Assembly (NCBI GenBank): GCA_000004985.1
Contig: GG738849.1
Direction: 5' to 3' (one strand)
DNA from: Naegleria gruberi
Lineage: Eukaryota
DNA: 64,000 nucleotides
The translations under genes were made by a program, and so were the position numbers. Shown piece after piece: positions 11,221-63,483 of this stretch. The notes under the pieces are model-generated. The model was not told the origin of the DNA. It ran no database searches and was given only the letters and a program-made list of their open reading frames with translations. Position 1 is the stretch's first letter. Every line of letters starts with the position of its first letter.

Positions 11221-11444
11221 TCATACCACTTTGTTCGAGTGCAATTTCTGATGTAGTATGGTATTAAATTCTCTCAATAAAAGCATTACTGCCTCAATAG
11301 TGGAAATTCTTCCCTCTACCTTTCCTGCACGTACTAGACGGAACACATATTTATAATCTTCTGGTAAATCCACTCTGATTCTCTTTAAATTTTTAAAGCT
11401 TTCTTTTCTATTGAGCATTCTTGCGTCATTCCAAGTACCATCAA
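11221..11444 (-). CDS. DTW domain protein, exon 2 (contains DGTW motif)
   Basis: A 51-nt intron spans 11445..11495 with acceptor TCTCAG. The splice gives ...HMFI-IDGTWNDARMLNRKE, which restores the eponymous DGTW motif. Confidence 0.6.
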
Positions 11445-11495
11445 CTGAGAAAATGAGATTGAAATCAATTGTGATAGAAGAATTTTAAAACTTAC

Positions 11496-12486
11496 TAATA
11501 AACATGTGAAAATGGAAATCATTAACATCTGAAAGTCTTTCCTTCACTGCACTGTTAAGATTGGAATAGAATGAATCCAATTCCTTTGGTAATGTTTCAC
11601 CTATTGTTGTGGAATCATCTGACGGATACAGAACATAGGCAAAATGATTTGCCGATGGTTGTTTGGTCATCTCAACAAGACTATCAATGGCATGTTCATG
11701 CATATCATGTTGTTCAATGTACATGTTCGTTGTTTGAGCTTGGTCACTGTGCAAGAGAATTTTACAACTATTTGTCGACTTGTGGAACTCCTTCTTGTGA
11801 ATGAGAAAATGTAAATGAAGATTGAGTTCAATCTTTTTCACGTCAACAGTCTGAGATTCTACCACCTTTTCCCAATGTGGATTAAATGTAAATGGCTTCA
11901 GCTTTCCACATAGGCAATGATTGAAATGCATCCAACAATATTTACATCTAGTATCTGCACTTTCTACTAATTTTTCATACAAGTTGTTATATACGAAATA
12001 TTTCTGTAATTCCTCATGTGAAAACTTTGCAATGGCTTCTTTCTTATCTACTTTTCCCAATTCTTGATTCATTATAGCATCTTCTGTTAGAAAATCAATT
12101 GTATTCCTATAACTCGTATTATAAATTTGTTCCAAGCCTTCAAAATTTTTCAAATCAATTTTTCCATCAATTCCCAATTCCATTTCTCTTAATTTCTTAG
12201 CAGTAGGTTTTCTTAAATTTAAACAAGATGAATGAAACTCTCTTCCAATAGCACCAATAGCACTCTTGAATATTTCCAAATAATAATTTCCTTTGAAATT
12301 TCTAATTGAATTTTCAAATCCAATTCCTTCTCCGATTCTTGTTGTTACAATTTTATGTTGATGTTGTTTTTGATATGGATAATATTGCCGACCACAAATA
12401 TTATTATTACTCCCTTTCTGCTGCGACAATAGAAAAGAACAACAACTTTGATGAATGAATTTTTTTTGATGTTGAAACTTGAACAT
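11496..12486 (-). CDS. DTW domain protein (DTWD1/DTWD2-like tRNA acp3U transferase family), exon 1
   Basis: CKYCWMHFNHCLCGKLKP gives the C-x2-C...C-x-C pattern of DTW proteins. The GTAAGT donor is at 11495..11490. Confidence 0.6.
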
Positions 12487-12656
12487 TTTTTTCTAATCTT
12501 GCAAACATTTTGATTGTTGTTATTAATTCCCTCAATTCATGATGATAATAATCGAGGTATTCCGATCAGAACAATTATCAGAATCAAGGAGAGGGTTTAA
12601 TTGTTGTTGTTGCAATTTAATGATGAAAAATTTCATTTCTAGCTTCTAATTTAATT

Positions 12657-14711
12657 TTGATTGAAAAAAAAATGCTCAACTCATTTCGGAATCAACTTTC
12701 ATCTTCGTTTGTGAAGGGAGTACTTCGGAAGAGAGGTTCAACTTGTTGCTGGATACAGTGTGGACCTAGAATGGTGGCGAATAATAATAGTATAATAATA
12801 GGATCAACTAGTCAAGTGGTTTCTAATTTTTCTACAATTAATACAAGTTCACTCAAAGACTTTTCGGAAAAGTATTTGGAGAGTGAATTGATTCGATTGG
12901 ATCAACAAAAGAAAAGGCAAGGGAAATCTAGAGGTATTTCATCACACTCACTTTTGGAAGATGACGAAGAAGAAGAAGAAGGAGTGAAAAGTATTTCCAA
13001 GAAGACCTCTTCACAACACAATGATCCATTTCTTCAAAGTAAAGAAGCTACTGAAGCCTATTCAAAATTCCTCAAACTCAATTTAATGGGACCTATCTGT
13101 AAAGCATTGGTACATTATATGAAATTTACAGAACCAACCGAAATTCAAAATAGTACCATTCCAAAAGGATTGAAAAAGAGTAATATTGTTGCGAGTGCAA
13201 AGACAGGTACTGGTAAAACTGCTGCCTATTCTCTTCCAATAATTCAAAAAATAATTACTGAGAGAATGAGAAGAAGATTGGCTCCACCTGGAGAGAAACA
13301 AATTTACAGCTTAATTTTGTGTCCAACTAAAGAGTTGGCTGAACAAGTTTCTGAACATATTAATAACTATGTGAATTATACATTACAAGTCATGAAACAA
13401 GAGGAGAGAATTGATGAAAATTTCCAATTCAAGATTGGTTTGATATTTGGTGGTGCCTCTAAAATTACACAATTGAAAACAATTAATAATGGTTTGGATA
13501 TTCTCATTGCCACCCCTGGTAGACTTGTGGAATTGTTAAAGAAGGATGACGATTTAAAGTTGAATGATGTTCGTTATTTGGTATTGGATGAGTGTGATAG
13601 AATGTTAAACATGGGATTTTTACCAGAACTCAAATATATTTACAATCACCTTCCAAAGCCAAGTAATGAAAGAGATGAAATGCAAATTTCCATGTACTCT
13701 GCAACTCTTACCAAGGATGTAGAGGATCTCATTTGTAGATTTGCTCCAACACATGCCCTCTTCAACTTGAATCAAGAATTTAGTATTCCAGAAAAGATCA
13801 AACACATCAAGTACTCTGTAAGCAAGAAGGAAATGAAATTCAAGTTACTGCTCTATCTTCTCAAGAGAAAAGGTTCCTTGAGAGATAAGAAGGTACTCAT
13901 ATTTTGCAGAACGAGAGAAAAGGTTGAAAGATTGGCACAAAATCTTGCCACGAGAGGATACAAAGCTGTTGGTATTCATAAGGAAAAGAGTTTATCATTC
14001 AGAACTAATGCCATCAAATCATTTTCAAGTCAAGAAGAAGGAGAGTGTCAAATTCTAATTGCCACTGATGTTCTTGCAAGAGGTATCGATGTTCCTGATT
14101 TGCCTTGTGTTATCAATTATGATGTTCCTGCCAAACCAGAAGATTATGTCCATCGTGTTGGTAGAACAGGTAGAGCAGGTAATGAAGGTTTAGCCTTCTC
14201 ATTCATCTCCAAGACACCAATTCTCATCAAAATTGGTGGTCGATTGGTCGAACTCAATGAGGAACATTTTATCAAATCAGTTGAACAATTCATCTCCCAA
14301 AAAGTTGAACACAGAAAGATTCCAGGGCCATGGAATGATACTGCAATGGAAAATCTTGGTGAGGAAATGAAACGTGTGGAAGAAATCTCAAAGAAGAGAG
14401 CACTCGAAATTCTCTCCAACAAGCAAAAGAAGAGTGAAAAAAAGAAGCAAAGTGAAGAGGATGCCAAGATGGTTTCTGCCTTCTCTGAAAGTTTCAATAA
14501 GATTAAGCAAAAGGTTGAGCAAACTAAAACTCTCACTGAATCCGATCTCAAGTACGCTCCAACTCTTCGTCACTTTAAGCAAGGCAGATACGAAGATGTA
14601 ATGAAGGAATTTGAAGTGAAGAGAGCCATCAAGGAGGGTGCCATCAAGAGAGTAAATACCAACTCTAAGAGTAAGAAAAAGAAGAAGAAAAAGTTTATCT
14701 ATCAGCTTTAA
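12657..14711 (+). CDS. DExD-box ATP-dependent RNA helicase (DECD variant of motif II), possible mitochondrial targeting
   Basis: Helicase motifs present are the Q motif FTEPTEIQ, I AKTGTGKT, Ia PTKELAEQ, Ib TPGRL, II DECD, III SAT, V ARGIDV and VI HRVGRTGRAG. There is a basic amphipathic N-terminus and a lysine-rich C-tail. The likely start is the Met at 12672. Confidence 0.8.
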   Translation: MIEKKMLNSFRNQLSSSFVKGVLRKRGSTCCWIQCGPRMVANNNSIIIGSTSQVVSNFSTINTSSLKDFSEKYLESELIRLDQQKKRQGKSRGISSHSLLEDDEEEEEGVKSISKKTSSQHNDPFLQSKEATEAYSKFLKLNLMGPICKALVHYMKFTEPTEIQNSTIPKGLKKSNIVASAKTGTGKTAAYSLPIIQKIITERMRRRLAPPGEKQIYSLILCPTKELAEQVSEHINNYVNYTLQVMKQEERIDENFQFKIGLIFGGASKITQLKTINNGLDILIATPGRLVELLKKDDDLKLNDVRYLVLDECDRMLNMGFLPELKYIYNHLPKPSNERDEMQISMYSATLTKDVEDLICRFAPTHALFNLNQEFSIPEKIKHIKYSVSKKEMKFKLLLYLLKRKGSLRDKKVLIFCRTREKVERLAQNLATRGYKAVGIHKEKSLSFRTNAIKSFSSQEEGECQILIATDVLARGIDVPDLPCVINYDVPAKPEDYVHRVGRTGRAGNEGLAFSFISKTPILIKIGGRLVELNEEHFIKSVEQFISQKVEHRKIPGPWNDTAMENLGEEMKRVEEISKKRALEILSNKQKKSEKKKQSEEDAKMVSAFSESFNKIKQKVEQTKTLTESDLKYAPTLRHFKQGRYEDVMKEFEVKRAIKEGAIKRVNTNSKSKKKKKKKFIYQL

Positions 14712-16471: not shown

Positions 16472-19400
16472 TTAGTGGATCAAGTGAGACAAATCTTCAA
16501 TATTCTTAACAAGTTCTTCCAAAGTGATTTGTTCTTGATGATTATTCGACAATTCTTCAATGACTCGTTGTTGAGTTTCAAAATCAAATTCCAAGAAGGA
16601 TTCCACAAAGTCACCATCAATAAAACCAACCGAGTCTTCTCTAGTTCTCTCCGATCTGTATTGACGATAGGTTTCACGAGAAATATTGGCCAGACCAGTC
16701 ACAACACTACTCATAGCCTTTTGAATCTTTGTCACAAATGCAAAAGTCTCTGGAGGTAATTGAGCCAAAACACCAATACCACCACTAATGGTACCAAAGA
16801 GAGCAGTCTTTACAGGTTGAGTATTAATGTCAGAGGATGAATTGGCTTGGTCAAGTCCAGGAAGGGATGATTCAGCACCAAATCTCATTCCAATAAATCC
16901 AGGTTGAATTCTATTTACACGATCAGAGCAGTAATACTTGCCGACACGAACAAGTTGTTTTCTTTCTTCTTCAGAGGCAGCCTCATCATTCTTTTTAAGT
17001 GTAATCATATTTCCTTGTTGATCAACAGCAACATATTCACTCTCATTGAGCATGAGGGAACAACTTAACCAAGAGTATTGATAATCCTTAGAAATGAGTC
17101 TGAGATTACCAGAGACATGTTGTTCTTCTGGATTTTCATAAACGAATAAATGTACAGATTTCATCATGTCACCAATAAGAATAAAGTCTCCATGACTATC
17201 AATATCAAGAATATAGATACCTCCACTACATGAACATTCTTGGACGAGATCCTTATTATCACCATCATCAGATTCAGCCCATTTGAAGAGCATAAGTCTA
17301 CCAGAGACACCAGCCAATAATTTTCCATTGAATGAGTGGAGAACCATGACAGCTCCCTTAACATCTTTTTCAGCCTTTAGTACGAGTTTGTCATCTTGAA
17401 CTTGAAGAACGAGAATTCTTCCCTTTGATGGTTCCTCTTCATCACCTTCAGTAATTGCTGTACCAACAATAAAATATTCATTATCGTCATCTGTGAACTT
17501 GCATGAAATAATGGATTGACCTAATTCATTACCTTCAAGACGGATTTCTGACTTTTTCTCAAAGTTGTTTTCATCCAAGGAGAAGATGGCACTAGTTTCT
17601 GGGTTTTCGAACTGAGTAATTAAAAGACCATAAGCCTTGGTTGAAGGTTGATGGCAAATCTTAGTTGGTTGAGCGTGTAATTGGACAGTCTTAATGTGAA
17701 GTTTTTGAATTTCATCAATTTGACCAATGAGGATGGAATTTTCATTAGCAATGGCAATGTGGAATGGGAAACTTTCGTGATTGAATGAACACATATCATT
17801 AACTTCTCCCAAATTAACATTAGAATATACAAGTTTTTGATTTCTGCTGTAAATAATGGTTGGTCTCTCAGAGGCAGCAAATACGTTCAATTGTCTGTCC
17901 TTGGAAATAAATGGTCTCAACATGATTGGCTTACTTCCAGCAACAATTCTCTTCTTATCAGTCAAAATGCCCATACCTCTATCCATTTTGAAAGTGAACA
18001 AATGACCATCACCAAGGCCACACATTAAATAATTAATACCTTCAAAGGTTGGCATTAAAATGGATCTCGGTAAAATTTCTCCTCCCAATTCTTGAACAGT
18101 GAGAATGTCAAAAGATGGAAGTGTCAATACTCTGACAGAAATTTCTGTCCACATACCAACTGCACAAACAGTAGATGATATTTTACCTTCTTCAGGACTA
18201 ATGTCAATGCAAGAAACTTCATAATCCAATTTAGTTTGTTGAATTTGTTTCAATGATTGAGCAGAAATTTCAATATATACAAGTTTTCCTTCACCAAGGG
18301 ATACTACCAATTGAGTTGGATTTGATGCAGCAAGACTGATGGTGCCACTTGACGGTTTCCATTCATCAATCAATTCCAAAGTATGAGAGCTTACTAATCT
18401 TGCAGTTTTATCGGTAACTTGCAAGTAATTATTTCCAATAACAGTATCACACAATACAGTGGTTGAATCCACATCAAAACCAGGAATCTTAGCTTCTCCA
18501 ATTTCTTCGTTATCAACTGAGGAAATAAGAGTTTGTCCGGTAAAAGACATGACGAGGTACTTTTCTTCTCCAGTTTCAGTTTTAAGGGACCATATACGAT
18601 TTAAACCAACCAAATCAGAAATGGTGGTCAATTCTTCAATACCAATACCATTCTTGATAATTCGGAGTGAACCATCCTTAAAGGCACCTGAACATGTAAC
18701 AATTTGACCTTGACCTTGTTTATCGGCATCAACAAAACAAAAATCTACAATAGGTCCAATATTAGAATAGGTTTGGAAAACTTCAAAGTATGAGTTGGTT
18801 TCTGGGTTCAATTCATCACTAATCCGTATGACTTGTGAGTCTCCATAATTTGATCCAATAAAAACGTATCCATTATCCAAGTAAGAAATGCATGATGAAA
18901 TTGATGTAACTCCGAGCTCCTTAAGAGTCAATCCAGTAACTTCGCTATCAGAAACTTGTAAGCTTAATAAATATAATTGACCCGATTGGTCACCCAAAAA
19001 CCATCTAGTATTATCTAACTTTCCATAAGAACGGATAGCCATACGTGAGTTGGCTGGAGATGCCACGGAATGATTCTTATTAGATTCGTTAATGTATGAA
19101 ACTTGAGCCTCTCCAACACAAATTACACCACCCAAAGGAGCAGGGACTGGAATTAAAATATTGGCTCCATGATCAACATTTAATTGATTGAGGGATGATT
19201 CTTCCATGTCCTTGTCAAGAGTTTTAACTTCATACGTTTTAACATGTCTTGATCCAACATGGTCTTGATAGAGTAAAGCAAAAGTAGGTCCAGATTTGGA
19301 TTTTGATCCTAAACTTTCTAAGAAGGCAATATCAATAACATTCAATTCCTCCAATCTAACATTGAAAGCCTCTTTAAATTGATGTTTGTTATTTTCGAAA

Positions 19401-19602
19401 GGAATAATTTTTAACAATCCTTCATATATTGAGAGTGCAACAGCACGACAGAGAGGATCAATTGTTGTGATGGAGCCACTTTCACTTCTTCTTCCGACAG
19501 GGTCATCTATGGAACCACTGGAAAGTGTTTCTATTTTCCCATCAATAAATCCAAGTGTAAAGAATGTATCTTCAATTGTAATAAAAAGTAAATCTTGTTT
19601 TT
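16472..19602 (-). CDS. DDB1: DDB1, exon 3 (bulk of the three beta-propellers and C-terminal domain)
   Basis: Long collinear similarity to DDB1: FKDGSLRIIKNGIGI, LPSFDIL, GGEILPRSILM, and the C-terminal ...FIDGDFVESFLEF. Acceptor around 19603-19604. An open frame continues upstream of the ORF-track start at 19417. Confidence 0.85.
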
Positions 19603-23686: not shown

Positions 23687-23758
23687 TACAAACGATGGGG
23701 CTCGAACCCACGACCCTCGGATTCGAAGTCCGATGCTCTTCCTCTGAGCTACGCCTGC
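23687..23758 (-). tRNA. tRNA-Arg (anticodon TCG)
   Basis: Cloverleaf read on the minus strand: GCAGGCG-TA-GCTC-AGAGGAA-GAGC-A-TCGGA-CTTCGAA-TCCGA-GGGTC-GTGGG-TTCGAGC-CCCAT-CGTTTGT-A. T-loop GGTTCGAGC. The acceptor stem has three G-U pairs. A downstream T8 run is present. Confidence 0.6.
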
Positions 23759-23854: not shown

Positions 23855-23928
23855 TACAGCGAGCGGGGCTTGAACCCGCGACCTTAAGCGTGTTAGGCTT
23901 ACGATCTAACCAACTGATCTATCGCTGC
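23855..23928 (-). tRNA. tRNA-Val (anticodon AAC)
   Basis: GCAGCGA-TA-GATC-AGTTGGTTA-GATC-G-TAAGC-CTAACAC-GCTTA-AGGTC-GCGGG-TTCAAGC-CCCGC-TCGCTGT-A. The cloverleaf is canonical, with D-loop AGTTGGTTA, T-loop TTCAAGC and a G1-U72 pair. Confidence 0.75.
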
Positions 23929-27227: not shown

Positions 27228-30059
27228 TTAAATAACAATATCCTTTGCTTTTGGTTTCTTGATGTGTCTCATATTTGCAGAGTTTGTTGAATAAATAACT
27301 GGTGGCATGAAGTAAGGTTTAGGAATACCCAATTCATCATCAGGAATGTAAGCATTTGGCCTCTTAATGGCAGTCGTTCTTGTGATAGTTGAAGGAAGTG
27401 ACGATTCAAATTCAAGTCTCTTCTTTCTATCTGCCATTTGCTCCTTCCATCTTTGTTTGACTTCTTCCTCGTGTGCCCATTCTCTTTCAATTTCCTCTGT
27501 TGGTGGTTCTCCTCGACTCATTCTGTCACGAGCCTCATCTACCATGGATTTTATCTGCTTATTCTCAGCTTCTAATCTCATAGTTTCTGTTCCATAAATT
27601 GACAGCTCTGAAACAGTTGATTTCATCTTGTTTGTAGTTTGCTCGATTTTCTTTTGAATAAAGTTAAGATTGACAGACAAGTCAAATGATTCATCTCTTC
27701 CTTTCATTGCCAATTTTCTTAACTTATCAGATGATTTAGTGATTCCCTTCAGAACAAGATTCTTTTCCATGAGTTGTTCTCTTCTCTGATTGAGTTTTTC
27801 TTCCAAATCTTGAATCTTGTCTTGTAACTCTTCTTCGTTGACAGAGTCTGTTCCAGGCAGCTTCCTCCACCTCTCTAAATTTTCTGGCCTTTCTAATTCT
27901 TCAGATAATTTTTGACCTTGTGTATTAAGTTTTTCAATATCAACCTTCAAATCCTCTTCCACTTTGAGCAATGATTCATACTCTGGAAGATTTTTGAATA
28001 ACACTTCCAACTTTCTCTTTTCCTCTTCCAAATCCAACTTTAGGCCTTTAATTTCCTCATCTCTCTTTCTCATTTCAATTTCACCTTCTTTGATAATTTT
28101 TTCTTGGGCATTTGCTTTTTCATAGAGAATACACAATTCATCGTTTCTGTCGATCAATTGAATACCAGTATAGTTTCTGTCTTGCACACCTCCTTCATAT
28201 TTCTTTTTCAATAGGGCCATTATTTCTTCAGCCAAGTTAATATCAGCATTTAGCTTGTCAATTTCCATGATGAGCTCAAGATTTTGTTCCTCCTTTTGCT
28301 TGGATGCCAATCTCTTTTTACTGAATTCACTAAGCATGCTAGCTTTTGTGGTGACTTCATCTTCAACTTTTCTTTTAACTTGTTTGAGTTCTTCCGATTT
28401 TTGTTGGTTTTGTTTTGTTAAAACCTCAAGTTCATTCTCCAAAATTTTGTTCTTTTCTCTAATTTCAGCATGTGATTGAGCACTGTCTTGAATTGCTTTA
28501 GCGTACTTGTTTCGTTCTCTTTCCATCAATGAGTATGATTGTTGCAAAGCAATGTACTTGTTTTCAATTTCTGTCAAGTTCTTATACAGCTCACCATTTG
28601 AAAAGTGGCAAATTTTGATTTCACCCACAGCTTCCATAAAGTCTCTTTTCTTTTTGGCGGCTTCTCTAGCCTTTCTCTCTCTTGCTGCTTCAAGATTGGA
28701 TATGACCTTATTCATTTCCCCTTCTTGGTCATCAACAACTGCAATTTTGTTTTCTAATTCATCTGTTTCCAGGTTTCTTGTTTTTAATTTTTGAGCCAAG
28801 AACATGTATTCTGCTTCCCCTGTCAGAAGTTCATGAATTAATAAGTCTACATCTCTCTCGATTTCAATTTTCTTCTCCTTGGTAGTTTCCAATTCTGATT
28901 GCAACATTTGCTTTTCTGAAGAAAGTTCCTCCACCATTTTTGTAAGCTTATCAATTGCAGATTTGGTATGTTCAAGTTGGAGTTGAGCATTATATGCATC
29001 TCGACTGTACATGTTTTCTTCGTTTTCTAAACTTTGTTTGTGTTTGATTTCTGTATTTTCCTCTTCAGCAGTAGTTTTTAAAAGTAAGTTCAATCTCACT
29101 CTTTCCAACATTTCCTCCTTTCCGTGGTCTTTCTCGAGTAAAAGTGTTTGCCTCATTCTGTCTATATCCTCTTGAAGTTTAGATGCTCCAATTTTGGCAC
29201 TATCCTCAAGCATGAACATATTATAGTGAATTTGTTCAAAATCTATCTTTTTGGTTTCTATTTCATTAATTTCTCTATCAAGAAGATCAAGTCGGTCAAC
29301 AAGAGACCTCACTTCATCATATGAAGCCTTGCTAGCTTTTCTAACAATTTCGGTCTGTCTCCTTTCTCTTTCTGGTTCTTCCTTTAATCTTTGAAGTGTT
29401 TTTTCCAAATCTCTTCCCTGAGTTTTTAGAGTGTTATCCAAATCATATTTTGAAGCAGCAATATCCTGTTCGAGTTTTATCTTTTTTTCTTCCTCCTTCT
29501 TTTTTCGTTCTTCAATTTCCTTAATTCCTTGTTTCAGCTGTTTGATATTATTTTTACAATTTTCAACAATAGGTCTCTCCTTGGCATTTTGTTGTTCAAT
29601 TAGCTCTCTTTTTTGGTCGTCAAGAATTGCAATTTTTCTTTCGAGTTCAATGACAGATGTCTGTGTGACTGCCTCCGATTCGTTCATAAGAGCAGTTTGA
29701 TTTTCTGCCTTCATTAAATCTTTTTTAAGATCTGCAATGTATTGAGTATTCTCTAGTTTGAGTTTTTCCAATTCTTTAATCTTTCTTTTTTCTTCTAAAA
29801 ACTCCTTGTTGAGTTGTTTACCTTGTTCTGTGATACCTGCTTCCTTTTCCATAGTTTTCAAAAGATAAGACTCCAATTCCAAACCCTTCTTTTTAAAATG
29901 TTTATAATCTTTAGGATCTATTCCTGCTATTCTATCCAGTTCGTTTACTACCCAGTTAGCATCCGAACTGAAAGTTTCCAGAACTGAAGAGCTTGCTGTT
30001 GAATCCGTCACGCCTTCAAAACCTTCCATTTTTTTATAATGTTGTTTGAGATAAAACAC
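27228..30059 (-). CDS. Large coiled-coil protein (about 940 aa; possibly cytoskeleton/cilium-associated, unassigned)
   Basis: Almost entirely heptad-rich E/K/L/Q sequence. The C-terminus ends PKPYFMPPVIY. The likely start is the Met at 30029 (MEGFEG). I recognise no catalytic motif. Confidence 0.45.
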   Translation of the reverse strand: MFYLKQHYKKMEGFEGVTDSTASSSVLETFSSDANWVVNELDRIAGIDPKDYKHFKKKGLELESYLLKTMEKEAGITEQGKQLNKEFLEEKRKIKELEKLKLENTQYIADLKKDLMKAENQTALMNESEAVTQTSVIELERKIAILDDQKRELIEQQNAKERPIVENCKNNIKQLKQGIKEIEERKKKEEEKKIKLEQDIAASKYDLDNTLKTQGRDLEKTLQRLKEEPERERRQTEIVRKASKASYDEVRSLVDRLDLLDREINEIETKKIDFEQIHYNMFMLEDSAKIGASKLQEDIDRMRQTLLLEKDHGKEEMLERVRLNLLLKTTAEEENTEIKHKQSLENEENMYSRDAYNAQLQLEHTKSAIDKLTKMVEELSSEKQMLQSELETTKEKKIEIERDVDLLIHELLTGEAEYMFLAQKLKTRNLETDELENKIAVVDDQEGEMNKVISNLEAARERKAREAAKKKRDFMEAVGEIKICHFSNGELYKNLTEIENKYIALQQSYSLMERERNKYAKAIQDSAQSHAEIREKNKILENELEVLTKQNQQKSEELKQVKRKVEDEVTTKASMLSEFSKKRLASKQKEEQNLELIMEIDKLNADINLAEEIMALLKKKYEGGVQDRNYTGIQLIDRNDELCILYEKANAQEKIIKEGEIEMRKRDEEIKGLKLDLEEEKRKLEVLFKNLPEYESLLKVEEDLKVDIEKLNTQGQKLSEELERPENLERWRKLPGTDSVNEEELQDKIQDLEEKLNQRREQLMEKNLVLKGITKSSDKLRKLAMKGRDESFDLSVNLNFIQKKIEQTTNKMKSTVSELSIYGTETMRLEAENKQIKSMVDEARDRMSRGEPPTEEIEREWAHEEEVKQRWKEQMADRKKRLEFESSLPSTITRTTAIKRPNAYIPDDELGIPKPYFMPPVIYSTNSANMRHIKKPKAKDIVI

Positions 30060-30103: not shown

Positions 30104-30176
30104 CGCCCCACGTGGGGCTCGAACCCACGACCGTTGGATTAAAAGTCCAACGCTCTACCGACTGAGCTAGCAGGGC
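30104..30176 (-). tRNA. tRNA-Lys (anticodon TTT)
   Basis: GCCCTGC-TA-GCTC-AGTCGGTA-GAGC-G-TTGGA-CTTTTAA-TCCAA-CGGTC-GTGGG-TTCGAGC-CCCAC-GTGGGGC-G. Close to canonical eukaryotic tRNA-Lys(UUU). The acceptor has two G-U pairs. Confidence 0.65.
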
Positions 30177-53231: not shown

Positions 53232-54029
53232 TTATTCTTCATCAGCAGCTTCTTCTTCTTCATCAATCTTAGGAGCCAAATAGTAACGAATATAACAATC
53301 TTCAATAAACTTGAATTCAACCAACAATGGTGATTCCTTTGAGAGGTACAAACCAACTTGATTACTCAAGGAGGCAGATTTACAGAAAGTATTCAAGTAT
53401 TTCAAAGCAAATGTCAAACTGACAGATTCCTTCAATTGAATTGAAGTAGATTCATCACTCTTGTCAGCCTTTGTGTTTTCTCTGACAGTAATACTTCCGC
53501 TACCTGATTCACCAGTTACAGAGAATTTAACACCATCCTTGTTGACAGAAACAGTGACAGTATCACCAATAGTTTGCAAATCAGAACAAATCTTCTTGAA
53601 TTCAGCTGCTGGCATGGTAATTTCAGCAGTATAATCTGGTTCTGGAATGCCAACTGGTTCGGCATCAATTTCGATCAACTTCATTTCAAATTCACTCATT
53701 CTTTCTCCATTCTTGCTTTCGAATGTAAGAGCGAGGTTGTTTGGTTCATCAGAAGCCTTCAAGGAAATGGCATCATCCTTACCGGCACACTTTAACATCT
53801 TGTTCATGGCTTGCATGCTGATACCCAAGACAACATTCTTATCACATCTGTATCTTTCAAAGGCGTCCTTCTTGAGCATGAGGTGAACAAGAGAGACGTG
53901 AGCAGTGTCCATGGCTTGAAGGGCCATACCGTTACTATTACAATCAAAGTTAGCATCATTGACTAATTCCTTGATGGCATCGAGGATCTTCTTGAGGATT
54001 TCACCTTGTTGGAGTTTTGCTTCGAGCAT
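53232..54029 (-). CDS. PCNA: Proliferating cell nuclear antigen
   Basis: MLEAKLQQGEILKKILDAIKELVNDANFDC...LTFALKYLNTFCKSASLS...YYLAPKIDEEE is collinear with PCNA along its full length. Confidence 0.9.
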   Translation of the reverse strand: MLEAKLQQGEILKKILDAIKELVNDANFDCNSNGMALQAMDTAHVSLVHLMLKKDAFERYRCDKNVVLGISMQAMNKMLKCAGKDDAISLKASDEPNNLALTFESKNGERMSEFEMKLIEIDAEPVGIPEPDYTAEITMPAAEFKKICSDLQTIGDTVTVSVNKDGVKFSVTGESGSGSITVRENTKADKSDESTSIQLKESVSLTFALKYLNTFCKSASLSNQVGLYLSKESPLLVEFKFIEDCYIRYYLAPKIDEEEEAADEE

Positions 54030-54267: not shown

Positions 54268-55209
54268 CTAAATATTTTTTTTTATTATCCACTTATCAAA
54301 TGGTGGTTGAGATTTCATAGTATTCAATTTGATAACGTAGGTGGATTCTCTCTTTTTAATTTCGTGGTATGTTTTCATGTTTGGTTCCTTGTTTTCCAAT
54401 AGTTGAGCCAGTTCTGCACTCAGTTCCTTTCTTTTAATACAATTAATGAAGGATTTAAAGAAGATGTGTTTAGATAGTTGAGTGGCTGCTTTTGGAGTAT
54501 TTTCATCCTTCTTGGTTGTTCCTTGTTTGTGACCTTTCATACCAATAACAACTTCCTCAACATGAGATTGATTTTCCTGTGCTAAATTCAAGTAAGATCC
54601 TATACTATATCCACTGCCTTTTATCTTTGTTTCTGAAGCTCTATCAGAGAAATGTGGAATATTCGATACACCTTCCTTAAATAAGTAAAACGAAGGAGTC
54701 TTGGTACTTAATTGGTCAACTCTATCAACAATTGATTGATTCAATCGTTGTTGTGTGAGTTCCAAATCCAATTTAGATTTTTCACTCAACAATATTAAGA
54801 ATTTGTCAACAAAAATTGGTTCAAAAAAGTTTGATAATAATGATCCTTGAATTCCTACAACATTCCACTTTGTAATCTTGTCACTGCAGGACATGCTCTG
54901 ATTTCTTGAGCCTCCTCCAGGTTTTAGACGAACTAGATTGATAGTTTGATCCTCTCCAAACTTTTCATGAGTGCATGAATCGTTATGAATAATTTTAGAA
55001 CCAGTTCTACCTTCCAGTATTACCTTCTTTCTTTGTTTTTGGTTCTGATGAGTTTAGTTCTGTTTCATCTAGTTTCCGTTTCATATCATTCGGTTCAACA
55101 TTTTCAGACTTGTTGAGCTGTTCTTCATTATTTGCCTGGCTGTTTTGTTCAATAGTTTCACTTCCACTACTGACAGTACTAGGAGAATTAACAATTGAAC
55201 AATCCCCAC
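54268..55209 (-). CDS. ADAT1: ADAT1-like, exon 3 / C-terminal region (contains a reading-frame discontinuity near 55010-55060)
   Basis: A 50-nt intron spans 55210..55259 with acceptor TTTTCAAG, restoring PC-GDC (the PCGD Zn motif). Downstream [32 protein letters not shown] matches ADAT1 ([30 protein letters not shown]). The upstream part of this region, however, is in a different frame that stops at a TAG near 55012. Confidence 0.5.
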
Positions 55210-55259
55210 CTTGAAAATAATTCTTCTAATAAAATTATGAAAACAATCCAATAACATAC

Positions 55260-55623
55260 ATGGCAATTCTGTTAATATCATGTATAATTCAAAATTATTC
55301 TTCAATTTCCACCTCTCCACTTCTTCTACCCAATCAAAATATTCCGAACACTTTCCACTCTCCATTAAATTGTACATAAATTTCATAAAACTTCTCCTTG
55401 CCATAACTTCAGCATGACAATCATGAAGTAAATATCCATTATTGATATCCTTCTCAATCAAGTCATGTCCGATACATTTTGTACCTGTACCAATCGAGCA
55501 GACAATGAATTTCTTTTCTTGTGGGATTGAATTATTAGAGCAATCCACTAAAACGAGAGCTGCAAAAATTGTAAATTCACTTCCTTGTGGTTTTCCTTTT
55601 TTTGTCACTTTGTCTGAATAAAA
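55260..55623 (-). CDS. ADAT1: ADAT1-like, exon 2 (deaminase core)
   Basis: A 42-nt intron spans 55624..55665 with acceptor CTATAG. KKGKPQGSEFTIFAALVL, GTGTKCIG and the Zn-ligand motif HDCHAEVMARRSF are present. The GTATGT donor is at 55259 after TELPC. Confidence 0.7.
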
Positions 55624-55665
55624 CTATAGGTAAATAATTAATTGATAATTGTGTTTGAAACTAAC

Positions 55666-55731
55666 TTTAAAAACATGCTTCATAAGATTTCCGAAATGAT
55701 GAGTTGTACAACCGTCATTATTAAATGACAT
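55666..55731 (-). CDS. ADAT1: tRNA-specific adenosine deaminase 1 (ADAT1/Tad1-like), exon 1
   Basis: ATG at 55731..55729. MSFNNDGCTTHHFGNLMKHVFK is followed by a GTTAGT donor at 55665. Confidence 0.45.
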
Positions 55732-56074
55732 TTTTTATATTTATTATTCTTTAAGATATTATTCTCAACAACTTGTTGCAAACTATTCTTTAATATACAT
55801 CCATAATGAAAATCGATTCAATATTATCCATCACTGAAAACAATTGTATTGAGAGGAGAAACAGACAACAATAGAAGTTGTTTGCTTGAGTAAGGAGCAA
55901 TATTTAAAAATAATATCAAAAAAAAAATTGTACAGCACAATCTTCCTCCCTTTTGTATTCAAACTTTGAACAAGAGAGCATTTTGAAGATTTAAATCACT
56001 TCCGCATTAAAAATAGTATTAATATTACTAGTGTGTTATTGTTAAATAGATTACTTTGTTGCGAATACTTTAGA

Positions 56075-58254
56075 ATGGCTGACGATTTATTGGATGGAAT
56101 TGATGATCTTTTTGATGACGATGATATTTCAAACCTTTTATCCTCAACAGATAATACTACACCAAGTCAAAATATACAACAACCCACACAAACATCACAA
56201 CAAATTCCCCTACCAAGACCTTCATCCTCTGTTTTAAATCATCAACCAATCAATGTTCCTACAGTAATCACATCAAACATGAGGTCATCATCCACTACGA
56301 TCCCAATGCCTCAACAACAACAACCCTTTAATAATGCTTTTAATAATAGGAGTAGTCAACCATTTATTAATTTCCACGGAATGAATCCATCTCATAACGT
56401 TATCAATCCTAACCAAATGCATACCATGAACAAACCAACAATGACTCAACAGGAATATCTGAATTTGATGAGAAATCCAAATCAGAACTACATACCTTCA
56501 AATCCTTCTTCATCCAATAACAATAATAATTTTATGAGGATGAATTCACTCCCCCTCAACCTTCCAAACATTAATAGCAACAATAGTAATACTGCAACAC
56601 ACAATCCTTACCTCATGCAAGTGGCTAATCTCAACAAACAACAACAACTTGTCAAAAGTTTTACAACTCAACAACCACAAGGTAAATACTCCTCCTCAGC
56701 AACTGCACAAGTAGCTCCACCAAAACCATCTATTCCTCTCCATTCTGTCATTAACCAAATGGGAGGAAATCCAAAACTCCAATTTTCAACAATGGTCAAT
56801 CCACCACCTTCTTCTGCTTCTGGTAATGCAAAATTGGCTCATTCATTCTTAAATTCTATTCAACAACTCAATACACCAACAGGTGGCGTAATACCTCCTT
56901 CTTTTTTCACATCAGCCCCATCAGCCCCAATTCAGATCACTCTACCAACAAGCACAAAGGGATTTCTTGAAATTTCAGCTGGTACAAAGTTAGGAAAGAA
57001 ATGGCCTAAACTTTTGAGTGAAATTCCAAAAGTTGAGATCACTGTTGTAAATAATAGAATATGGCAATCTTTGACCTCATCTCCAAACTCTAATGCTGAA
57101 AATAATTCCATCAGATGTTATGTTCCAGATTTTGGTTCAGAGTTTGATGATTTTGATGATGATGATCTTGATGATGAAGAGGACGATATGCTATCAGACG
57201 ACGAAGAGTTCAATAATATGGATGAGGAATCCTTTGACTTGAACAAATTTAATTCTAAAACCAAAAAGAGTCAAGGTATGAAGAGAACAAGGTCTGGAGA
57301 AAGACCAAGACAAAAAAGTAATGCGTGTGTCTATTTATTTTCTCCGAATAGAGAAGCATTTGGATATATTAGTTCTCAAGAGTATAATAATTGCTTTGTT
57401 CCTCTTTCTAAACACAAAGTAATCATGATAACTGTATCTCCACTTCCAAGTACTGATAATTCAGGAAGATTTTTTGTTTCTCTCAAAGTTTATCTTGTCA
57501 AAAAAGCCCTTGTGACTGATAAGAATATTCTCGAGTCTAATAATGATTCTAATGATTCCAATAACAATATTTTGACAACAGCTGTTGATGGAATGGCTGA
57601 TGAGCAAATTAGAATCTATAATATTCGTAAAAACTTTTTGAAAAAGTTATTCGAAATTTTAGATAGAAATAATTGTTCAACAGGTGCTTCTTCCTCTTCA
57701 GATTTAACTGAATATGATTCTAGCAAAGTGAGAAAGACGAGTGAATCTGATATTAATGCTTCTAGAATTAAACAAGAGGAAGAGGATGATCTTGATGCCC
57801 TCGATGACACTGATTTGGATGAGTACATTATTCAAAAAGCACCAGCTTCCAGCTCTACAAGCAGTTCTAACTTGGATATCCAAGGTACTGATAAGAGTCT
57901 AGAGAAGCAACTCGAAGAGTTGTACGATGAGATTGAAAAAACAATTGTTGATGATGAAAATGCAGAGAATGATTTTTCTGATGAGGAGGAATCGAGTCAT
58001 CACGAAATTGAAATTCCTGACGATACACTCTTAACGGCTGATCTTAGAAGTTATCAAAAGACTGCTGTGAAATGGATGCTTAAACGTGAAAGAATTGGAG
58101 AAGATAAAGTCAAAACCACACCCAAGTTACACTCCCTTTATCAAGAAAGAAAATTCCCAGACGGAACAGCATTTTACTTTAATCCTCTTAATGGTATTAT
58201 AACATTGACATTTGTTCCTGCTCCACCTGAACCAAAGGGTGGTATTCTTGCTGA
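56075..58254 (+). CDS. SNF2-family DNA-dependent ATPase (Rad5/Rad16/Ris1-like subfamily), exon 1
   Basis: ATG at 56075 (MADDLLDG). A long N/Q/S-rich low-complexity N-terminus and acidic stretches are present. The exon ends ...LRSYQKTAVKWMLKRE...GGILA-D. The GTAAGT donor is at 58255. Confidence 0.7.
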
Positions 58255-58302
58255 GTAAGTTTTTATTTTCGAATACTGGTTACTAATTTAATAATTTTTT
58301 AG

Positions 58303-60151
58303 TGAAATGGGTCTTGGTAAGACTGTAGAAGTAATTGGCTTGATTGCCTCCAATAGAATGAAAGGAAAAAAGAATACACAAAAAGTTGGTGACAAGTATC
58401 AATCTCCTGCTACTTTGGTTGTAACTCCATTGACTATTGTTGACCAGTGGAAGCAAGAAATTGAAAAGCACACAAACAATCAACTCAGTGTATACGTTTA
58501 TCAAGGTAGTAGGCGTATCAGAGATGCACCAACACTTCTCAAATATGATGTAATTATTACCACATACAACACACTTAGTTTCGAGTTTAGTCAAACTTAT
58601 ACACCAGCAAAAGAAAGGTCCAACGCAAAAAAGAAACAAACGAAGGATACATCAATGCAGCAACCTAGTCCAATATACAAGATGAAATTTTTCAGAGTTG
58701 TTCTCGATGAAGCTCACAATATTAAAAATAGAAAGTCTCTTCAGGCCAGGGCTACAGCAGCTGTTGATGCAGAAAGAAGATGGGCAGTCACCGGTACACC
58801 AATTCAAAATCATATTGATGACTTATTCTCACTATTCCACTTCTTGAAAGTTAATCCACATGGAGATTGGAGATGGTGGTCAAGGTTTATTGGCAAACCA
58901 TTCGAAAAGAAGGATAAGAAGGCTATTGACGCTCTTCAATCTGTTATCAAGAAGTTGGTCATTCGTAGAACAAAGAATAAGAAGATTAATGGTAAAAGAA
59001 TTGTCATGTTGCCACCAAAGAGAATCGAGACAGTCAATATACAATTTACTGAGGCAGAGAGTAATTTTTACAAATCTCTCTACGAGTACAGCAAGGGTAA
59101 ATTTAACGAGTTTGTTAGAAGTGGAACTGTTCTTAAAAATTATGCAAACATTTTGGAAATGCTTTTGCACTTGAGACAGGTTTGCAACCATCCAGCTCTC
59201 ATCATTACAAGTTTCCAGAAGAAATCTGAAAAATCAACCATGAATGGCTTCTTGGAAAGTTTTGAACAAAAGAATGCCTTTGAAGTATATGATTCTATTT
59301 TACCAATGTTACCTCAAGTTTTAAAACTTAATAAGGAAAAGAACAAACCAAAACAAAATTTGGAAGATGGCATGATTTCCTCTCAACTCAAAGCTATTAA
59401 TGTTACTAAATATATGAGGACTAATTGGAGATCGAGTAGTAAGATTGGAGCTCTTATAGAAAAATTGAGAGTTTTAGAGTTGGGAACTAAATCAGTTGTG
59501 TTCTCACAGTGGACATCCATGTTGGACTTGGTAGAAGTAGCTCTCGAAAAATCTAACATTAAATTCGTCAGACTTGATGGTAAAATGCAAAGAAAAGACA
59601 GAGATGATGCAGTACAAAAATTCAAATTTGATCCTCATATTCAAGTTTGTCTTATTTCCCTCAAGGTTGGTGGTACAGGGTTGAACTTGGTTTGGGCTAC
59701 ACATGTATTTTTATTAGATCCATGGTGGAATCCTGCTATTGAAGAGCAAGCCATTGATAGAGTTCACCGTATTGGTCAAGATAAGCCTGTTACTGTTTTC
59801 AGATTCGTTGTAAAGGATTCAGTTGAAGAACGTATTTTGAGTTTACAAAAGAGTAAGACTAAAATTGCCAATGAAGCGCTCAATCTTGGTGGAAGTGATG
59901 ACGAGGAAGAAGAAAATTATACAACCTATACAACATCATTCTTGGGTGGCTCATTTGGTGGTGGTGCTTTGAAGAGCAAGTCATATGACTCTGATGAAGA
60001 ATATGAGGATGACGATGAAGACGAATTCAATGAAGTAACTGTAGATGACTTGGAGGATGAAGAATCAGGATCTGGTGGTGCCATGTTTGGCCATACCAAG
60101 AAGGATGCTCAAAAAATACGTATCAAGGATTTGTCTACAATCTTTGTTTAA
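58303..60151 (+). CDS. SNF2-family ATPase, exon 2 (helicase motifs I-VI)
   Basis: A 48-nt intron spans 58255..58302. The splice restores GGILADEMGLGKT. Motifs present are DEAHNIKN (II), TGTPIQN, LRQVCNHP, the HELICc region LDPWWNPAIEEQAIDRVHRIGQ, and an acidic C-tail. No Cys-rich RING insert is present. Confidence 0.75.
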
Positions 60152-60242
60152 TAAAACAAGAATTATTGTCTACAATCTCTTTAATTCTAATAAATGTGAA
60201 CTGAATGACACAAAAGAGGAAACATAAAATTATGATAAAAAA

Positions 60243-61091
60243 ATGAGTCAACAGCCTTTTTTCCAGAAGGTTACACAGGCAAGAAAGAGCAAGTCTTCTG
60301 TTCCGAATACATCTACAAGCTTTTTTTCCACTTTAAATGCAACACTCCAAAACGATACAAGCGATAGGGATTTTTTGAATTATTTTAGTCTGAGTGAAGA
60401 GGATCACCAGAGAAGTGATGAAGCCCTTGGTCTTCGTACACAACATGATCCAGAAGCTAGTACACCATTAGCACCAGAAGATGATGAGGATGAACCTGTG
60501 GGGGATGAGGAAAACTCTCCAATATCACAACCAACACCTAGGACAAGACCTAGGCATCCAAACTATGGAATGAAAACAGTGAGGCAAACTTCTGCCTCTT
60601 CATCAAATAATCCAAATGAAAAACGAAAAAGAAAGCAAAGGTGGCTTCAAGAAATTCGAAAATATCAAAAATCAACTAGGAATCTCATTCCAAGGGCATC
60701 TTTAATTAGATTAATCAAACAAGTTACTGCCGAATTATCTGAGAAAATTCCATACATTAGACAGCTTGCTGGTGAAGGTGCAATTCGATGGAGAAAGGAT
60801 GCTCTTGCTGCTCTCCATTCAGCAGCAGAAGATTTTTTACATGAATTTTTAACACTTTCTAACTATGCCACATTGCATGCCAAAAGAGTTACACTCATGG
60901 GTAGGGATTTAAAGCTTGTACAAAATATTAATAGGGAACACAATAGACATAGTAACAATGCTGGAGGAAAGAAACAAGCGTCATTTCAAGAAAGACCAGC
61001 AAGGAAGAGAAAGGATCCCAAGCGTAAGGACCTTTCAGAGTCAGTCCCAGAAAATAGTGATGATTCTATGAGAGATGAAGAGTCCTCATAA
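60243..61091 (+). CDS. Histone H3 variant, CenH3/CENP-A-like (divergent long N-tail, extended loop 1, C-terminal extension)
   Basis: The histone-fold block is EIRKYQKSTRNLIPRASLIRLIKQVTAEL...ALHSAAEDFLHEFLTLSNYATLHAKRVTLMGRDLKLVQNINRE, against H3 [29 protein letters not shown]...[36 protein letters not shown]. The N-tail is about 150 aa with no H3 similarity. Confidence 0.65.
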   Translation: MSQQPFFQKVTQARKSKSSVPNTSTSFFSTLNATLQNDTSDRDFLNYFSLSEEDHQRSDEALGLRTQHDPEASTPLAPEDDEDEPVGDEENSPISQPTPRTRPRHPNYGMKTVRQTSASSSNNPNEKRKRKQRWLQEIRKYQKSTRNLIPRASLIRLIKQVTAELSEKIPYIRQLAGEGAIRWRKDALAALHSAAEDFLHEFLTLSNYATLHAKRVTLMGRDLKLVQNINREHNRHSNNAGGKKQASFQERPARKRKDPKRKDLSESVPENSDDSMRDEESS

Positions 61092-61230
61092 TTTCAAATC
61101 ACTTTGTAAATAGCCTTTAACTGTAACAATATCAAAAATTGTAAAATATGTTCATGTATGTGATCGAATTTTAATACCCGCCATTTTTTCTTCACTTCCA
61201 GTGTTTGTTCGAAATGCTAAATTAAAAAAA

Positions 61231-62326
61231 ATGTCTGAACACTGCTCACTTTCGGAACAACTTGCGACCATACTAGTGCTACGAGAGGAAAATTTACTCT
61301 CTGAACCAAAACGAACGGACACTGTGGAAGTAACAATACCCGATTATTTTTCAAAACATTATAATAGAGTTTTAAGAGATCCTCTGGGGGAGTATCGTTC
61401 TCTGATTGAAGTACAATCGGTTGAAGAGGCTAATAGTTTTATAACATTTTCTAAACAAATCTTTAATCAAGTCTCTGTGGAGAATAATATAGTAGAACCA
61501 TCAAATTATAAATTAATATCAAAATCAGAAATCACAAGACAGTCACCACTTCTCCAAGCGTTAATGGTGAAAAGACAACACGAATATATTGCACCAAAAA
61601 TTGTAAATGTACCTTCATCTGTTGTTCGATCAACAACTCCGAGCTTTGAAAATGTAAATAGTAATAATTCAGTTGTACAGCAACAACAAATAGGAAGGAA
61701 GCCTATTCGATCATCTCACAACAACAAGTCTTCTGATGTTATGGTCATTGATGATGACGAGGAAAAACAACCAAAAAGTTCCTTCGTGACAGCTAAACAA
61801 TTAGTGAAGAAAAACAAGGGTAGTAATAGTAAGGATATTATGTCTGATGATGAAAATGAAGAGGAAACAATCAAGAAAAAGACATTGAGCGACATTAAAA
61901 ATCCAACCTCTAACTATCATCCAGTCACTTCATTGACAAGAAATTGTGGAGAAAATACAGGTGGAACGAAAAGGAAAAAGTTTGTGCCACCTTTGAAAGA
62001 TAATGGCAATAATAATAGTAATAATAATAATAATTCGAGTTCAAATTCAGGAGAAAAGCCTGCAAAAAAGAAAAAGAAAGGTGCTGATGATGAAAAGGCT
62101 CCTGATTTATCTAAATTATTTGAGGATGGTGAAATACCAGAGGAGTTGTCACATCTAGATCCTAAATTGATTGAGACAATTTCTAATGAAATTTTGGAAT
62201 CTAAAGTATCTGTAACTTGGGATGATATTGCTGGTTTGGCCTATGCAAAGAAATCAGTGCAGGAGGCTGTTATTTGGCCCCTAATGAGACCAGATTTATT
62301 TACAGGATTAAGAAAGCCTCCAAAGG
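61231..62326 (+). CDS. Meiotic-clade AAA ATPase (katanin p60 / fidgetin-like), exon 1
   Basis: ATG at 61231 (MSEHCS). The N-terminus is non-conserved with a poly-N/S run. The exon ends WDDIAGLAYAKKSVQEAVIWPLMRPDLFTGLRKPPKG. The GTAAGT donor is at 62327. Confidence 0.65.
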
Positions 62327-62383
62327 GTAAGTTATAATTTCTGTTTAAAATATTCAAATTTATTTAAAATATTAATGAAATAG

Positions 62384-63147
62384 GACTTTTATTATTTGGA
62401 CCACCTGGTACTGGTAAGACACTGATTGGTAAGGCTATTGCTCATGAGAGTGGATCAACCTTCTTTTCCATTTCTGCATCCAGTTTAACCAGTAAATGGG
62501 TTGGTGAAGGTGAAAAATTGGTGAAAACACTATTTTCTCTGGCTAGATATTTCCAACCTTCTGTTGTTTTTATTGATGAAATTGACAGTTTACTTTCTCA
62601 AAGAAGTGATGGAGATGCTGACAATGGATCTAGAAGACTCAAAACAGAATTTTTAGTTCAATTGGATGGTGCTTCTACAAATGATGACCAAGATAGAATT
62701 TTGATTGTGGGTGCAACCAATAGACCAGAAGAAATTGACGAAGCTGTCAGAAGAAGAATGGGCAAGAGATTGTACATTCCTCTTCCATCTAAGGAGGGTA
62801 GAAAGGAAATGTTTTTGAGACTTCTCGCCAAGAATCCTAATACACTCTCTGATGAAGAAATGGAAAAGTTAGTAGAACTCACTGATGGTTATTCGGGTTC
62901 TGATATCAAAAATCTTTGTGCTGAAGCTTCTATGTTCTCAGTTAGAGATCTTGGATCATTTATTAAGCATGCGTCAGCTGATCAATTGAGGCCAATTGAG
63001 TTTAAGGATTGTAGATCAGCCCTTAAATCAATTCGTCCTTCTGTAGCACAAAGTGATCTAGATAGATATATTGAATGGAATAGAACATTTGGTTCTTTTG
63101 ATTTTGATGAGAAGGAACAAGAAGAGTCATCAGCAAAAAGTGATTAA
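62384..63147 (+). CDS. Meiotic-clade AAA ATPase, exon 2
   Basis: A 57-nt intron spans 62327..62383. [12 protein letters not shown] (Walker A), VVFIDEIDS (Walker B), [14 protein letters not shown] and KRLYIPLP (katanin/fidgetin hallmark) are present. Confidence 0.7.
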
Positions 63148-63483
63148 AATTTTTATTGTGTATTCTTCATCTTAATCAATTAGCTACTCCAGATAATTTA
63201 ACAAAACTCGATGTCTGTCGATATTGAACTAGGTGAAAGGAATCCGAAACTTAAAATCACTTAATACCAACATTGGGGACAGAAAACTTTGTTATCCTTG
63301 ACTTGTTTTGCAAAACTCTGTTATTGATAGTTGAAGAATCCAATAAATCCAAGAAAACACTTTTCTTTGTTAATGCTAAAATATATTTCTGAATTTTTCA
63401 GATTTAACATTTCACCGATTCTTGTGATATTTTTCACATCATGCTGTTTTCCATAGTTCTTTGAAGGTTCCATTCTCATCAGA

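Follow-up and report, generated by a model that had tools for sequence, protein, structure and literature searches.

What kind of histone H3 is encoded near the end of this stretch of Naegleria gruberi DNA (64,000 nucleotides (nt) of contig GG738849.1, assembly GCA_000004985.1; the whole stretch is referred to as the window), and does it serve the centromere? The open reading frame (ORF) at issue, 60243..61091 on the plus strand, runs uninterrupted from an ATG to a TAA and encodes 282 amino acids (aa). We conclude that the gene is real and intact and specifies a highly divergent H3 variant of the centromeric type (CenH3), one of three such paralogs in N. gruberi. That the gene provides a functional histone variant is highly probable. 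The reading that we favor, and consider probable, is that of a fast-evolving CenH3 duplicate, sub- or neofunctionalized, at least as old as the split between N. gruberi and N. lovaniensis, and used outside vegetative mitosis. The coordinates of all features are given in Table 1.

The coding capacity of the locus is clear. An open frame of 282 codons would be expected by chance in a window of 34.5% G+C with a probability of about 1e-9, and the Pfam Histone family (PF00125) matches residues 99–226 with E=1.9e-21 (77 bits, compared with a cut-off of 26.4). The tails on the two sides of the fold differ in how much this calculation says about them. At the N-terminal side, 109 codons without a stop precede the next Met, a run with a chance probability of about 3e-4 at the same base composition, so the N-terminal tail is clearly coding. 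The 48 stop-free codons of the C-terminal tail have a chance probability of about 0.03; comparative support was therefore needed for this part, and such support exists, as described below. An exact look-up of the 282-aa product in protein and contig indexes returned nothing, because the public model is a fragment of 109 aa. Residues 125–233 are identical to this entry (NCBI EFC48882.1 / XP_002681626.1, "histone H3, partial"), which has neither tail and no start codon and is a homology-trimmed fragment. Dataset EV1 of van Hooff et al. 2017 (PMC5579357) includes this fragment under the name Naegleria_gruberi_NGRU000526_CenpA and gives three CenpA orthologs for N. gruberi (NGRU000485, NGRU000526 and NGRU000478). 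As a fold-only fragment, then, the gene is already on public record and already classified as a CenH3 candidate. To this we add the 282-aa model in full, an ortholog from N. lovaniensis, the finding that the C-terminal tail is conserved, and the contrast in evolutionary rate with the paralog CENP-A1.

The protein belongs to the H3 histone superfamily. The core-histone profile, the alphaN helix and the sequence EIRKYQKST (residues 137–145) are all present, with HAKRVTLMGRDLKL at residues 212–225; an earlier note on this DNA, made from its letters, had recognized the H3-like fold by the segment RKYQKST (residues 139–145), and rightly so. The AlphaFold2 prediction, based on an alignment of 70 sequences, is a fold of the H3 type (alphaN, alpha1, loop 1 (L1), alpha2, loop 2 (L2) and alpha3) with predicted local distance difference test (pLDDT) scores of 88–97 over residues 130–230. 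Helix alpha3 is predicted to extend about eight residues beyond the usual end of H3 alpha3. Within the 70-sequence alignment there is no variation at Q142, H212 or D222 and almost none at R182, R215 or T217. The residues by which H3 contacts DNA are kept (the equivalent of R83, and K-R-V-T in L2), and so are those of alpha2 and alpha3 that build the H3–H3' four-helix bundle (His, Asp, Leu and Ile). A Trp-Leu pair before EIRK in alphaN resembles the GWLKEIRK of human CENP-A.

Four sequence features serve to recognize CenH3s (PMC7052976): an insertion of at least one residue in L1 compared with H3, a divergent N-terminal tail, the loss of a Gln in alpha1, and a divergent fold. The window protein has all four. 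Its L1 insertion, noted before as a roughly 12-aa expansion, is 12 residues long by alignment to human H3, and AlphaFold2 predicts a short extra helix within it (residues 170–176; pLDDT of about 88 for the block). The N-terminal tail comprises about 124 aa ahead of alphaN, or 138 aa ahead of RKYQKST, which is shorter than the earlier estimate of about 150 aa. That this tail is unrelated to H3 does hold, as alignment and a Pfam search revealed no similarity to the H3 tail, no ARTKQTARK-type motif and no Pfam family; it is predicted to be disordered (AlphaFold2 pLDDT 40–63). The alpha1 Gln (H3 Gln68) is replaced by Ile, and the fold is 35% identical to those of human H3.1 and H3.3 over H3 positions 44–132. 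Alignment to human H3 also shows R-W in place of R83-F84, Ser in place of T107, and retention of the His113 equivalent. The short hydrophobic C-terminal tail recognized by CENP-C, a trait that CENP-A and Cse4 share but that is not universal among CenH3s, is absent, the window protein ending in 48 charged residues.

Matches in the PDB point in the same direction. The CenH3s come first (Schizosaccharomyces pombe Cnp1 at 1.1e-14, Cse4 at 3.4e-13 and CENP-A at 8.4e-12), followed by the weaker H3 matches (H3.3 at 3.7e-11; H3.1 and H3.2 at about 5e-10 or worse). In the tree of van Hooff et al. (PMC5579357), NGRU000526 sits in the CenpA cluster, grouped with Trichomonas at a bootstrap of 11; its branch measures 1.24 substitutions per site. 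Our neighbor-joining tree (84 fold columns, 200 bootstraps) places the window protein far from H3.1 and H3.3; no node that involves it exceeds 27% support, and the only supported group is that of CENP-A1 with its Willaertia counterpart (100%). An H3.3-like placement, the outcome that the earlier note had named as contrary to its reading, is excluded. As a candidate identity, H3.3 or canonical H3 is ruled out by the 35% identity (where more than about 85% would be expected), by the residues I/W/S at Q68/F84/T107 and by the insertion of 12 residues. A search of the window found no canonical histone genes; that N. gruberi possesses canonical H3 is taken from the literature.

How unusual are the two length features? 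We compared the 140 nearest single-fold relatives, most of which are CenH3-like, so that the sample is biased. Their L1 insertions range from -1 to +19 residues and reach +12 or more in eight. Extensions of at least 20 residues past the fold occur in about 14 of the 140, obvious fusions having been set aside, and several relatives have both features. As judged from these sequences, L1 and the C-terminal tail are both among the longest known, and neither is unprecedented. The statement that the protein continues past the fold is correct, but C-terminal extensions, like long L1 loops, also occur in other CenH3-like proteins of the databases. Within Naegleria the length of L1 is not conserved (+12 here, +4 in the N. 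lovaniensis ortholog, +2 in CENP-A1).

The comparative support comes from N. lovaniensis. A word-indexed homology search had returned only four weak metazoan CenH3-like matches and no Naegleria relatives; these were found by an exhaustive HMMER search that covered 1.84 billion representatives. The best full-length relative is N. lovaniensis XP_044545339.1 (C9374_008699, 359 aa), which matches query residues 21–280 with E=3.4e-17. Directly downstream of its gene is the orthologous gene for an AAA/Vps4_C ATPase of the katanin/spastin/fidgetin type, in the orientation seen in the window, and because neighbor and orientation are shared we regard it as the positional ortholog. The ATPase (11242..13240 in the N. 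lovaniensis locus) is 84% identical between the two species in its AAA domain and about 50% identical in its N-terminal half. On the upstream side, where the window has a SNF2 helicase gene, no histone gene was found beside the orthologous SNF2 loci of a metagenomic relative (a JGI contig whose SNF2 protein is 64% identical) and of Acrasis kona. Among the loci compared (this contig, the A. kona locus and N. lovaniensis), synteny is therefore seen downstream only, and only in N. lovaniensis. At its L2/alpha3 junction the N. lovaniensis gene is interrupted by a 63-nt GT-AG intron (10892..10954 of PYSW02000035.1) that carries a stop in frame. The N. gruberi gene has no intron there, so that one was gained or lost inside the genus.

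The two orthologous proteins share a long N-terminal tail, the motifs K/RWLxEIRKYQKST, LIPR, WxxDA and LHxAxED, and a C-terminal tail with an acidic, Ser-rich end. The window protein's tail had been described as about 45 aa, basic and acidic; it is 48 aa long and does hold a basic patch, after which comes an acidic, Ser-rich end. It is hydrophilic and charged (RHSNNAGGKKQ...DEESS) and predicted to be disordered (AlphaFold2 pLDDT below 60). The spliced N. lovaniensis protein has a C-terminal tail of 49 aa that ends in DPNDGDYQEEDMENSEDESVLDDEE. In a pairwise test this end aligns weakly with DPKRKDLSESVPENSDDSMRDEESS (E=0.021), and an ENS-acidic motif is common to both. The C-terminal tail is therefore a conserved part of the architecture of the ortholog pair. 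Pairwise comparison detected no similarity between the two N-terminal tails, and the isolated N- and C-terminal tails of the window protein gave nothing above noise in searches of domains (Pfam) and structures (PDB). The orthologs differ further in that the N. lovaniensis protein has only four additional residues in L1, keeps Gln68, is 359 aa long and has another upstream neighbor.

The remaining comparison is with the paralog that has been localized. According to a preprint by Kennard et al. 2026 (doi 10.64898/2026.08.18.745565), which took its candidates from van Hooff et al., antibodies were raised to residues 1–94 of CENP-A1 (XP_002682707.1). The antibodies are reported to label about 159 foci per nucleus that colocalize with CENP-C and track spindle microtubules throughout mitosis. 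The preprint describes both remaining paralogs as down-regulated during mitosis or below detection. XP_002682707.1 ("histone H3 variant", 230 aa) is encoded on another contig and is the full-length form of NGRU000485. Of the three van Hooff candidates, elimination leaves the window gene as one of the two paralogs other than CENP-A1. The sequence hallmarks on which the earlier note had based its CenH3 assignment are all real, and the centromeric role that they suggested belongs, as far as localization goes, to another paralog. Like the window protein, CENP-A1 has a long unrelated N-terminal tail (about 135 aa), Trp at F84, Ser at T107 and no Gln68. Unlike it, CENP-A1 has only two extra residues in L1 and ends in a short hydrophobic C-terminus (VAREAVYH). 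In its fold the window protein is 39% identical to CENP-A1, 39% identical to the third N. gruberi paralog (NGRU000478) and 43% identical to its own N. lovaniensis ortholog. The CENP-A1 fold is 79% identical between N. gruberi and the more distant genus Willaertia. This contrast (43% within Naegleria versus 79%) indicates that the window gene evolves very fast, far faster than CENP-A1.

These results argue for a CenH3 duplicate with a use outside vegetative mitosis, and several points weigh against it. The high divergence, the loss of N-terminal homology and the difference in L1 (+4 versus +12) also fit relaxed constraint. The phylogenies lack resolution, and the neighbor-joining tree does not recover the N. 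lovaniensis ortholog as the sister of the window protein. A comparison of two alleles that differ by five single-nucleotide polymorphisms (SNPs) has almost no power for the ratio of non-synonymous to synonymous rates (dN/dS). Finally, placement among the non-mitotic paralogs is by elimination.

Of the alternatives, the one that survives best is a lineage-specific, non-centromeric H3 variant that looks like a CenH3 and would mark some other part of the chromatin (telomeres, ribosomal DNA or heterochromatin, for example); we consider it possible, if short of probable. It would accord with the lack of mitotic up-regulation and with the atypical C-terminal tail. The H3-like Gln68 and the modest L1 of the N. 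lovaniensis ortholog also suit it, as does the failure of the trees to support membership in any CenH3 clade. On the other hand, Trp at F84 and the motif W-L-x-E-I-R-K are typical of CenH3s, and CenH3s outscore every H3 in the structure search.

CenH3 paralogs elsewhere (Drosophila Cid, Caenorhabditis elegans HCP-3/CPAR-1, those of cereals) generally still go to centromeres. Their behavior, the four sequence features, the CenH3s at the head of the PDB matches and the position in the van Hooff CenpA cluster would be in keeping with a bona fide centromeric histone at mitotic kinetochores, acting beside CENP-A1 or redundantly with it. We find this unlikely. In the preprint, the Naegleria kinetochore was validated with another paralog; the C-terminus of the window protein is long and charged rather than the short hydrophobic tail that CENP-C recognizes; and the window gene evolves far faster than CENP-A1. 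The window gene is probably not the main mitotic centromeric histone, a role filled by the slowly evolving CENP-A1, and any centromeric function that it has is probably not mitotic. For a centromeric role in some stage our confidence is a little below even, and it is the same for a non-centromeric role.

A decaying duplicate, that is, an incipient pseudogene still open by chance, could account for the long branch in the van Hooff tree and for the low identity of the fold to H3. Expression that is possibly below detection and a four-codon upstream ORF (uORF) that overlaps the start codon would agree with it as well. Against decay stands the second allele. A metagenome assembly (ENA ERZ929261) contains a contig 99.5% identical to 54641..63169 of the window, on which the histone is called at 282 aa and differs by A77T and F198Y. 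The two ORFs are separated by three synonymous and two non-synonymous SNPs, too few for dN/dS, with no indels or disruptions; synonymous changes outnumber the others, and the only SNP in the C-terminal tail is synonymous. Against decay stand also the improbability of so long an open frame, the confident predicted fold with its structural and DNA-contact residues kept, and an N. lovaniensis ortholog retained in position, its intron spliceable and its fold intact. With frame, fold residues and ortholog all preserved, decay is less likely than the functional readings, and we give it only a small chance. The uORF is identical in the second allele. Contigs of the same origin (ENA ERZ929261 / Logan ERR1078381, PRJEB11402), again 99.5% identical, cover the PCNA gene and the SNF2–histone–AAA stretch, which means that either a strain resembling N. 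gruberi or a second haplotype is present in the sample.

Lastly, that the C-terminal tail is an artefact of a missed stop, a frameshift or an unrecognized intron joining a downstream ORF is very improbable: the NCBI model does end at NINREH and a 48-codon open run would occur by chance in about 3% of cases, but that model also lacks a start codon, no stop, frameshift or plausible GT...AG intron was found after alpha3 in the window, the independent assembly is free of stops and frameshifts as well and also gives 282 aa, and the N. lovaniensis tail shows the same charge pattern and the shared ENS-acidic motif.

Returning to the duplicate used outside vegetative mitosis, a working mechanism can be outlined. 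The variant would pair with H4 and be built into nucleosomes. The enlarged surface of L1 and alpha2, which corresponds to the CENP-A targeting domain, may direct it to a chaperone or deposition site of its own. The C-terminus of CENP-A binds CENP-C through hydrophobic residues (Kato 2013, as cited by Kennard et al.). The C-terminal tail of the window protein would leave the nucleosome at the face where CENP-A offers this short hydrophobic tail, and would present there a basic patch resembling a nuclear localization signal, followed by the acidic, Ser-rich end. Since a long charged tail replaces the tail on which CENP-C docks, canonical docking of CENP-C is doubtful. The variant might then be a centromeric histone with a stage-specific or auxiliary part to play, or it might be non-centromeric. 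A bolder version, which we offer as a long shot, is a new functional subclass of CenH3-derived histones with a conserved C-terminal extension, whose nucleosome would be "pre-occupied" and exclude CENP-C. Its RKRK patch might fold back in cis, either onto DNA or onto the acidic patch of H2A–H2B, while the acidic CK2-like end might be a phospho-switch or give a chaperone something to hold. The histone might mark centromere-like or formerly centromeric chromatin in stages without division, such as the flagellate or the cyst, or in a cryptic meiosis.

Table 1 Positions of the histone gene, its parts and other features of the window.
Feature	Position	Strand	Description	Basis
Coding sequence of the CenH3-like H3 variant, complete	60243..61091	+	282 codons plus TAA	ORF listing, Pfam, match to the 109-aa model
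uORF ATG ATA AAA AAA TGA	60232..60246	+	four codons; overlaps the histone start out of frame	
N-terminal tail	60243..60611	+	residues 1–123; rich in Ser/Thr/Pro and acidic residues	composition, AlphaFold2, no Pfam match
Helix alphaN	60612..60671	+	residues 124–143; includes KQRWLQEIRKYQK	AlphaFold2, alignment
Stretch of the truncated public model	60615..60941	+	NEKRK...NINREH, 109 aa	
Helix alpha1	60693..60746	+	residues 151–168; H3 Gln68 position is Ile	alignment, AlphaFold2
L1 insertion KIPYIRQLAGEG	60744..60779	+	residues 168–179, 12 residues	alignment to human H3, AlphaFold2
Helix alpha2	60795..60878	+	residues 185–212; preceded by Arg-Trp	AlphaFold2, alignment
L2 (AKRVTLM) and helix alpha3	60879..60962	+	alpha3 at residues 220–240	AlphaFold2, alignment
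C-terminal tail	60945..61088	+	residues 235–282; 48 aa past the H3 C-terminus	alignment, composition
Basic patch RPARKRKDPKRKD in the C-terminal tail	60993..61031	+		composition
Acidic, Ser-rich end LSESVPENSDDSMRDEESS of the C-terminal tail	61032..61088	+	includes S/T-x-x-D/E sites	composition
AAA/Vps4_C ATPase	61201..63147	+		
Rad5-like SNF2 helicase, first ORF	56033..58258	+		
Rad5-like SNF2 helicase, second ORF	58307..60151	+		
PCNA gene	53232..54029			
DDB1 ORF	16472..19417	-		
tRNA-Arg(TCG)	23687..23758	-	two of the three tRNA genes lie 97 nt apart	
tRNA-Val(AAC)	23855..23928	-		
tRNA-Lys(TTT)	30104..30176	-		
943-aa ORF	27228..30059	-	K/E-rich, coiled-coil-like	no Pfam match

The neighborhood of the histone gene, and the window at large, provide further observations on gene models. 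The Rad5-like SNF2 helicase upstream of the histone consists of two long ORFs that are 48 nt apart, and is probably split by a short intron; its NCBI model has only 489 aa, so that a second truncated model stands beside that of the histone. The DDB1 ORF is identical to N. gruberi NEG-M XP_002681776.1 save for 11 residues, GAESSLPGLDQ. The public model omits these 33 nt (about 16847..16879, minus strand), which are open in the genomic ORF, and the omission may be a spurious predicted intron. The window DDB1 is 75% identical to that of N. lovaniensis and 66% identical to that of Willaertia magna. A strong strand skew at 28–30 kb (AT skew -0.33, GC skew -0.21) is due to the K/E-rich ORF of 943 aa.

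For reconstructions of the ancestral kinetochore Naegleria is a key outgroup, and a map of its centromeres has yet to be made. Three CenH3-like genes, one of them so unlike CENP-A1, bear on the design of antibodies and of chromatin immunoprecipitation and on lists in which CENP-A is scored as present. The practical gains are a corrected 282-aa model in place of the public 109-aa fragment and an N. lovaniensis ortholog that shows the C-terminal tail to be conserved. No new principle is demonstrated.

Three sets of known systems invite comparison. Trypanosomatid H3V and Giardia H3B are divergent H3-fold proteins of excavate protists that look like CenH3s and are not centromeric; the comparison with them is a functional one, the demonstrated sequence relationship being confined to the H3 fold. 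The CenH3 paralog sets of Drosophila (Cid1–5), C. elegans (HCP-3/CPAR-1) and cereals (alpha and beta CENH3) show unequal rates and stage- or tissue-specific expression. In those sets the paralogs have been localized; for the window copy there is a non-mitotic expression class. Human CENP-A, Cse4 and Cnp1 differ from the window protein in their L1 insertions of 2–6 residues and in C-termini that end no more than about six residues after alpha3. They are like it in having an L1 insertion at all, a divergent N-terminal tail, the loss of Q68 and the change of F84 to W, and Cse4 resembles it also in the length of its N-terminal tail (about 130 aa).

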